Origin: Haplodiscus bocki
Lineage: Eukaryota
Length of the DNA: 64,000 bases
Direction of reading: 5' to 3'
Assembly (NCBI GenBank): GCA_965655095.1
Contig: OZ296652.1
Span: forward strand, 7,998,001 to 8,062,000
Part shown: positions 55,197-56,175 of the stretch, in pieces
Position numbering within the stretch: position 1 is the stretch's first letter
How the letters are laid out: every line of letters starts with the position of its first letter
Notes under the pieces: model-generated
What the model was told of the DNA's origin: nothing
What the model saw: the letters and a program-made list of their open reading frames with translations, nothing else
The model's database searches: none
Translations under genes and position numbers: made by a program

Positions 55197-56175
55197 TCAC
55201 AAGCTAACAGTCGCGATGTAGGCAATGGCGGAGGGGTTGCAGACCATGCAGGTTCGGAGGTGTTGTTGAGCGCGCCTGACGCCGTCCACACCGCAACAAT
55301 TGTAGACTTGGCGCAGATGTCGATTTAGAAGGATAGTTTTGGCTTCTTGAACAAGGGGAACAAGCGGGGCAGTGCTGGGGGGTGCGCTAGGATTTTTGTC
55401 CGGATGAATCAATAGAAGAATGTGGCGGGCGCGCGAGTTAAGTGTGTCAGCTGAGGCAGTTGGTAAGCAGCATAAGAGGTCATATAACATGGACTCTGGT
55501 GCGAAGTCGAGGGTCGTGGGGTAAGTTGACAGTTGATGGAGTAACATTTCCTTATACGTCTGATGGAGTTGGGGATTTACTGTAGCGGCCTTGAGAGAAG
55601 ACACTTGTTCAGTTAACTCGAAGGTACGAGCAAGCAAGCTGGAGTTTTCTTCATTCAGAGTAGTTAAACGTTGATTTAAAGCAGTAATTTGAGTTTCTTT
55701 CTCTCGCAGTTCTTGCACTGTTTCGCCGAGAACCTGAAAAGTGTTGTTAGCGGCCACGCGGGCTTCTTCAAAGCCTTTTTGGAGGCGTTGCACGGAATCA
55801 AATTCCGTCACAAGAAGCTCCATGGCCTCTTCTGCGTCCATGGAGGCGTCTACAGCTACATCAAAGGTGTCGGGGTGGACAGGAGGCGGTAACGGAGGAG
55901 AGCATAGACAGTTTTCAGTGGGCTCGTTGACATTCACACTGATGGTCTGGAAAGTGGGAGGAGGAACCCAGAGCTGGTTAGCTGCGCGAACAAAAGGGCG
56001 GTTCTGGGGAGCGTTGATTTTCTTGAGAGTGACATTTTGGGATGTCGAGTTGATTCGAATAACACGATACTCGAAGGGATCCAGCAGTCGCACGAGATGT
56101 CCAGGAGCCAAGTCCGCGACGCGGCCAGAGCAGGTGACGAAAGGGGCAGCGCTGAAAGAAACAGCTGAAGAGAGC
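55197..56175 (-). CDS. Retroelement accessory ORF: SH3-like N-terminus, coiled coil, C-terminal DnaJ J-domain (HPD)
   Basis: LYDLLCCLPTASADTLNSRARHILLLIHPDKNP...VQEAKTILLNRHLRQVYNCCG aligns with the J-domain consensus (YYDILGV..TAS..EIK.AY...L..HPDKNP...EA..VL.D...R..YD..G). The frame is open from the strong acceptor ttttttttctgttccAG at 56177-56176. Confidence 0.8.

Follow-up and report, generated by a model that had tools for sequence, protein, structure and literature searches.

The 64,000-nucleotide stretch of DNA analysed here (the window) carries on its reverse strand a gene for a J-domain protein, ORF3, which belongs to a Ty3/gypsy element with an F-type env, sits between env and the 3' LTR, and is kept across copies and families of the element under purifying selection. 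On the strength of sequence and structure models we propose, with slightly less than even confidence, that ORF3 is a conserved accessory gene, spliced from the LTR with a start codon built at the junction, whose product would be a dimeric adaptor that grips a host complex with its beta barrel and recruits host Hsc70 to act on it by remodelling.

The J-domain gene, its element and its predicted splicing

The features of the element are as follows (window coordinates).

54517..55169, reverse strand: 3' LTR, 653 nt
54758..54772, reverse strand: LTR copy of a predicted AT/GTAAGT splice donor, with the AT at 54767-54766
55170..55181, reverse strand: short purine-rich (PPT-like) tract, adjoining the 3' LTR
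55197..56175, reverse strand: ORF3 coding exon (accessory J-domain gene), 325 codons past the junction base, plus stop
55239..55298, reverse strand: putative metal-binding tail, CC(G)...CxxC, with HC as the first pair in F9-type families
55299..55490, reverse strand: J-domain, with HPD at 55398-55406
55581..55835, reverse strand: long helix with leucine zipper (L166, 173, 180, 187, 194; Asn177), predicted dimerisation coil
55836..55976, reverse strand: disordered Pro-rich linker, with no canonical LC8-type motif in the window copy
55977..56147, reverse strand: KOW/SH3/Tudor-like beta barrel, residues 10-66, pLDDT 83
56176..56190, reverse strand: predicted ORF3 splice acceptor (T-run, TTCCAG/G), where between-family homology starts
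56620..58984, reverse strand: env exon, F-type fusion glycoprotein, beginning at its own TTTCAG/G acceptor in the same phase as ORF3
59110..64000, reverse strand: pol (PR-RT-RNase H-macrodomain-IN), extending past the window edge
beyond the window, in locus L031, reverse strand: gag, two leader ORFs, PBS and 5' LTR

The original prediction had described an open reading frame with an SH3-like start, a proline linker, a coil, HPDKNP and CxxC, placed between env and a PPT-like tract. This layout is found in the 338-aa stop-to-stop frame (55197-56213, reverse strand), where the motifs follow in the order GHLVRLL..FEYRVIRI..VTLKK, PPLPPP, long coil, HPDKNP and CxxC; direct reading places the HPD at the predicted 55398-55406, and the gene is flanked by the env frame (56620-59109, reverse strand) and the purine tract (55170-55181). 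Two details had to be amended: the coil is present but, at about 85 aa, longer than the ~70 aa claimed, and it includes a leucine zipper of five heptads; and the CxxC tail has the fuller form CC...CxxC, or HC...CxxC in some families. The start assigned to the gene, 56175, is exactly the first base past the conserved splice acceptor.

The 3' LTR differs from the 5' LTR (L031 4855-4201) by 1 substitution and 2 gap columns, and a 4-nt target-site duplication, CAAG, flanks the element; the insertion is therefore young. The layout is errantivirus-like, LTR-gag-pol(PR-RT-RH-IN)-env-LTR with a PBS and a target-site duplication. A Pfam search with the window env gave zero matches; we class it as F-type because its Atlas matches are Baculo_F (0.95) and Fusion_gly (0.94) clusters, and because two relatives, P0124 and P0132, lie above the PF12259 (Baculo_F) cut-off. 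The element thus shares with errantiviruses (the Drosophila springer subclade, 'ancient errantiviruses') the gag-pol-env order, F-type env, PBS and LTRs, but differs from them in adding after env a gene predicted to be spliced, apparently on the same AU exon, and in having leader ORFs and a macrodomain in Pol.

There is no conserved ATG in ORF3. Among 57 loci the predicted acceptor is AG/G in 43, AG/A with an immediate in-frame ATG in 13 (all in family F6) and AG/A alone in 1; not counted are nine duplicate and two degenerate loci, as well as 12 frames, most of them from cut loci or with T-run shifts, where the script saw no acceptor in frame. The env acceptors share the phase of ORF3 and are followed by a signal-peptide-like stretch, and env of F6/F7 has its own ATG at the acceptor. 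On the donor side, AT/GT[AGT]AG is the sole donor-like site 300-100 nt before the PBS in 10 of 11 LTR types, against an expectation of 0.21 of 11 from dinucleotide shuffles; the types are related by ancestry, hence not independent, and their flanks are mostly unalignable (seven types compared). Given the conserved AG/G acceptor and the AT/GT donor in the LTR, splicing likely builds the AUG, for env and ORF3 alike, from the AT of the donor and the G of the acceptor; the donor used would be the copy in the 5' LTR, outside the window. Part of the published account of the Drosophila springer subclade describes an env start codon supplied in part by a spliced AU dinucleotide (10.1101/2023.08.03.551782). 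Contigs of unknown kind from four runs of one study contain 23 joints; none of the 15 that were listed falls at the predicted sites, an outcome that speaks neither for nor against the splicing.

A second conserved donor (GTGAGTAC/GTAAGTAC) lies at about 3898 of L031 (reverse strand), about 300 nt past the PBS, in F1-F4; as a source of the start codon (ACG/TTG) it was dropped once the AT/GT donor in the LTR had been found.

Architecture of the protein and its predicted Hsp70-binding face

In the AlphaFold model of ORF3 (mean pLDDT 79.9) the barrel occupies residues 10-66 and is followed by a disordered linker, by one helix (114-198) and by the J helices (229-303). The four helices of the J fold (229-233, 242-256, 271-283, 285-303) are modelled at pLDDT 84-95, about 90 for the J-domain as a whole, and the Pfam DnaJ profile matches the window copy with E 4.2e-7 (30.4 bits over a cut-off of 27.8), so that the Pfam and structure checks suggested for the predicted J-domain came out in its favour. 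The profile also matches 26 of 28 aligned members at E<=0.05. Foldseek ranks J-domains and the KOW domains of Spt5/NusG first, every E being >0.001; the top match is the J-domain of Sis1 (TM 0.77 on target, E 0.004), and J-domain matches to the model superimpose with rmsd 1.5-3 A. By sequence, the best PDB match of the J-domain is DNAJC5 (E 1.9e-13), with DNAJB8 and DNAJA2 close behind; it thus resembles, in sequence and fold, the J-domains of cellular proteins of class C (type III), DNAJC5 among them.

The HPD is intact in 43 of 49 non-redundant full frames. In the part of the literature available to us, the core Hsp70-binding surface is described as the HPD and the basic residue 26, with Tyr25 and Phe47 important in DnaJ (PMC1906734). 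Of the residues named there, the window copy retains Tyr7, Leu10, Arg26, HPD-K-N, Ala53 and Leu57, and deviates with Ala at 25 and Val replacing Phe47. Among 22 families whose helix II could be read by script (of 26 rows), K/R26 is found in 14, Tyr25 in 6, both in 1 and neither in 3; helix II, as read from these sequences, is therefore atypical with respect to the usual Hsp70-binding face. From the conservation of the HPD we infer that ORF3 recruits Hsp70, and the J-domain probably engages it in an HPD-dependent manner. The deviations lend themselves to another reading, namely that in the branch of the window the J-like module keeps its HPD and serves as a decoy or binding scaffold without the usual activation of Hsp70: the equivalents of Tyr25 and Phe47 are lost, helix II has 1-2 basic residues in F1-F5 and F9 vs 2-4 in F6-F8, P0209 has no DnaJ match at E<=0.05, and P0204 falls below the cut-off. 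We regard this reading as improbable, since the HPD is near-invariant over 21-95% identity and position 26 is basic in the branch of the window except in F9-type families.

The barrel alone gives a best Z of 7.8, with KOWx-KOW4 of DSIF (Spt5), NusG and Tudor domains being tied; this Z is in the range of common folds and says nothing on function. At the level of the alignment, its near-invariant aromatics are Tyr and Phe only, which bears on the question of a Tudor aromatic cage. A PDB sequence search with the barrel alignment gave a best E of 0.09, and the SH3 domain of the integrase of the same element found no support as the source of the barrel (probability 0.6%).

In the linker, TQT-like anchors of the LC8 type, as defined in part of PMC6607443, occur in 14 of 26 members, DKATQTD and ATTQTE among them, vs a shuffle mean of 4.1 (maximum 12 in 2000), a figure to be read with the facts that the pattern was set after the sequences had been seen and that 10 of 26 C-terminal halves match it too. 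Textbook anchors are present in P0209, P0202 and P0204; there are none in the family of the window. The zipper gives weak bZIP_1 matches in 14 of 28 aligned members, and the Cys/His pattern of the tail suggests a metal site. With no transmembrane stretch in ORF3, the product is likely soluble and, from its zipper, predicted to be a dimer. An Atlas search with ORF3 gave a best score of 0.79 and no lead.

Conservation, allele exchange and loss

A search of the element's own genome (1.5 Gb) with the J half of the protein returned 1021 candidates; 150 were scored, and 150 of 150 matched. Env lies directly upstream of ORF3 in 18 of 19 other copies fetched. Of 20 loci picked from a DnaJ search, 18 are ORF3 and 2 are host genes, with env upstream in 14 of the 18 (the other 4 are fragments or belong to a tandem array), and two more env families have ORF3 in 8 of 8 loci. 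Overall, ORF3 is carried by more than 10 families, with identity down to 21%, and is not a one-off capture, the outcome that would have counted against the original prediction. The alignment spans 21-95% identity; the H-P of the HPD, CCG, CxxC and residues of the barrel are near-invariant. Values of dN/dS are 0.05-0.38 in the 12 of 23 pairs with measurable (unsaturated) dS, while in the remaining 11 dS is saturated and dN is 0.27-0.67; in the family of the window the J region has the lowest or nearly the lowest dN/dS (0.06-0.20). These low values across copies indicate that ORF3 is under selection as a protein.

That ORF3 might be no more than a piece of host sequence, picked up by the element and of no use to it, would agree with the loss of the J-domain in one family and with the lack of an HPD in 6 of 49 full frames. 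This explanation is very improbable, being largely refuted by the purifying selection seen in every measurable pair and by the conserved splice signals; ORF3 also occurs on both deep branches of the clade, and no host gene of the same architecture was found among the DnaJ matches inspected. Likewise, no cellular protein with the order KOW-linker-zipper-J-Cys appeared in the DnaJ, Atlas or profile-search matches.

Word-indexed protein searches returned only ENA proteins, many of them 97-100% identical even to broken copies of the element's own genome, and these proteins are therefore largely from the same organism. A profile search of 1.84 billion representatives gave 54 matches at E<=1e-30, and further full-length ORF3 families with 25-59% identity to own-genome loci. 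Three ORF3 families from this search remained unmatched in the own genome by direct queries; searches of that genome with pieces of P0016, P0082, P0202 and P0296 gave nothing at the thresholds set, with these queries. Three ORF3 proteins have a longest contig of exactly the same size as that of an env relative (7243, 11911 and 3477 nt), a coincidence suggesting that env and ORF3 are paired in further data sets as well; there is thus a hint of ORF3 in other species or populations.

In the DnaJ search of the own genome, most scored matches past the first 17 appear to be ORF3 of the element, so that transposon copies would swell any tally of J-domains in this genome. Locus L112 (1-10000) is a tandem array of units of about 2.7 kb, all lacking env and each holding an F8-type ORF3 that is frameshifted.

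Between families, ORF3 is 23-56% identical vs 65-80% for integrase. Three Pol lineages carry ORF3 alleles that are 55-63% identical on IN/Env backbones 93-98% identical, and the Gag capsid regions of copies with swapped alleles are 90-97% identical. The one pair examined shows a drop in identity at the acceptor, from about 90% to 65%, with no recovery before the last 167 nt of the LTR; from this it follows that in this pair the exchanged module is ORF3 together with the part of the LTR that holds the donor. One template switch in reverse transcription also yields exchange of ORF3 with U3, without any host conflict.

Family F10 (514 candidates, many identical) is nested within the clade with SH-aLRT 89 in a quick tree; the trees cover own-genome copies only, and the Env tree was built by FastTree. 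The family has copies with env intact, and many of its members are near-identical. What remains of its ORF3 is only a piece of the barrel, interrupted close to its start by an in-frame stop in 6 of 6 loci; 7 loci (6 copies) give no J-domain match, and the one leader examined lacks the leader ORFs. Given its nested position and the loss of the J-domain, ORF3 dates back to the ancestor of the clade and is not required in cis; F10 may receive help in trans. It is because alleles are swapped and one abundant nested family has lost the J-domain that we call ORF3 accessory.

Two side observations concern these loci. In L138, L140, L147 and L148 of F10, the 450 nt that follow env hold Cys-rich RING-like fragments with broken frames, located ahead of the barrel remnant. 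Locus L038 has env and ORF3 with no gag/pol frames in the 10 kb fetched, and its ORF3 is a mosaic of two alleles.

The exchange and loss data bear on two further explanations. Tas, Tax and Rev are the named models for the first, in which ORF3 would regulate the RNA or promoter of its own element: the barrel would bind either nucleic acid or the machinery of transcription, and Hsc70, brought by the J-domain, would remodel the resulting RNP. The location of the gene between env and the 3' LTR, its predicted spliced expression, the Spt5/NusG KOW domains as best structural matches, the bZIP-like zipper and the transfer of ORF3 together with U3-R all speak for it, as does the spliced accessory protein CERV of Cer1, required for gRNA export according to the accessible part of PMC10309623. 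However, the ORF3s of L035, L039 and L040 are 92-95% identical and sit on LTRs alignable mainly in their last ~210 nt, which argues against a strict pair of activator and cognate promoter; F10 is abundant without the J-domain, and KOW matches are tied with Tudor matches. We consider a regulator unlikely, though worth keeping in view.

In the second, ORF3 would supply the particle of the element itself with Hsc70 (and LC8), to serve its assembly, its transport or its uncoating, and a role in capsid assembly or uncoating had also been suggested by the original prediction. The J-domain of SV40 T antigen serves capsid morphogenesis among other roles, as far as the available text of PMC3486835 goes; env and ORF3 appear to have a common first exon, and hence would be co-expressed; LC8-type motifs would also fit. 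This role is weakened by the divergent ORF3 alleles found on near-identical Gag capsids and by F10, which is very abundant, has env-intact copies and many near-identical members, and has no J-domain; there is, moreover, no ORF3-Gag fusion. On balance a particle-directed function seems somewhat less likely still than a regulator.

Proposed mechanism and relation to known systems

The adaptor mechanism that we favour would proceed as follows. The AT of the LTR donor and the G of the acceptor would provide the AUG for both env and ORF3; the zipper would dimerise the product, assisted in many families by the LC8-type motifs; the KOW-like barrel would grip a host target, and the J-domain would set off ATP hydrolysis by Hsc70 next to it. 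In the least certain step, the target would be a host restriction or silencing factor, so that ORF3 would act in counter-defence, possibly also in trans. We favour a host-facing role because of the fast divergence, allele swapping and loss of ORF3, and because a macrodomain is present in the same elements. Disabling of a silencing complex, as once suggested for this gene, is possible, with no pointer here to piRNA/RISC in particular. A more ambitious version, for which our confidence is lower, would make ORF3 the first Hsp70 co-chaperone of a reverse-transcribing element. In it, a clade of complex invertebrate errantiviruses would have evolved independently a T-antigen-style adaptor, composed of a barrel for targeting, a zipper stabilised by LC8, the J-domain and a metal knuckle, that directs host Hsc70 against an anti-transposon complex; an arms race between element and host would maintain its exchangeable alleles.

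Polyomavirus T antigen combines an N-terminal J-domain with the Rb-binding LxCxE and with origin-binding and helicase domains. By Pfam, ORF3 has none of these domains other than the J-domain; the layout differs, and the working principle alone is in common. Virus-encoded type III J-domain proteins are described in the accessible part of PMC3486835 for SV40 (the T antigens), Molluscum contagiosum and phage RB43 (Rki); as in polyomavirus T antigen and other viral J-proteins, an HPD J-domain encoded by a parasite is joined in ORF3 to unrelated targeting domains, and by analogy borrowing of host Hsp70 would be expected. Unlike these proteins, ORF3 is carried by a reverse-transcribing element, and its J-domain, which resembles cellular DnaJ domains, is C-terminal, behind the KOW-like barrel and the zipper and followed by the Cys tail.

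Accessory ORFs of LTR retrotransposons are often spliced, family-specific, and gained and lost, as the available portions of PMC5408684, PMC11952523 and PMC10309623 describe. None of those compared from these portions (bdelloid GDSL/DEDDy ORF3, sORF1-2 of MDG1/412, CERV of Cer1) is a J-protein, and ORF3 differs from such ORFs in coexisting with a full env. The word DnaJ has 0 occurrences in PMC5408684; DnaJ, J-domain and chaperone have 0 in the main text of PMC13524379, whose supplement lists elements possibly including relatives of this clade; neither 'retro' nor 'transpos' occurs in the J-protein survey PMC10410713. In the literature searched, most subscription papers being outside our reach, no retroelement-encoded J-protein was found. 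ORF3 would thus be a variant of a viral strategy known from DNA viruses, in a class of elements for which we found no report.

Viral J-proteins are known from DNA viruses and phages, and the prevailing view is that retroelements rely on chaperones of the host; with a J-protein gene in an LTR element, under selection and spliced, the J-protein strategy would reach reverse-transcribing elements as well. Natural controls are at hand in the divergent alleles on near-identical backbones, in the families with canonical and atypical helix II, and in the family that has lost the domain. Naming the host complex that this animal transposon has to remodel would lead directly to an unknown defence pathway.

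With its leader ORFs and macrodomain, the clade looks equal in complexity to vertebrate complex retroviruses. The macrodomain lies between RNase H and integrase at about 61100-61530 (reverse strand; Pfam Macro E 0.005, below cut-off), and a Macro domain was found in 7 of 7 families checked. The sequence TTTAAAC, which we take to be a slippery-type site, occurs at the gag/pol overlap (L031 about 1985-1970, reverse strand) and suggests -1 frameshifting. Two conserved small ORFs, which have no match in Pfam and recall the leader sORFs of MDG1/412, lie between the PBS and gag (L031 3823-3560 and 3535-3146, reverse strand), with homologues in L054, L058, L151, L155, L156 and L157: one is 74-90 aa long with PPxY and a transmembrane helix, the other about 130-150 aa with PCY(F/H)CQ. 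In F6-F8 the two stand in the opposite order, and a third ORF is present or possible there. Finally, the host flank in the window contains degenerate tandem repeats at 28205-28935, 42160-42974 and 47037-48839, with units of about 142, 26 and 175 nt.
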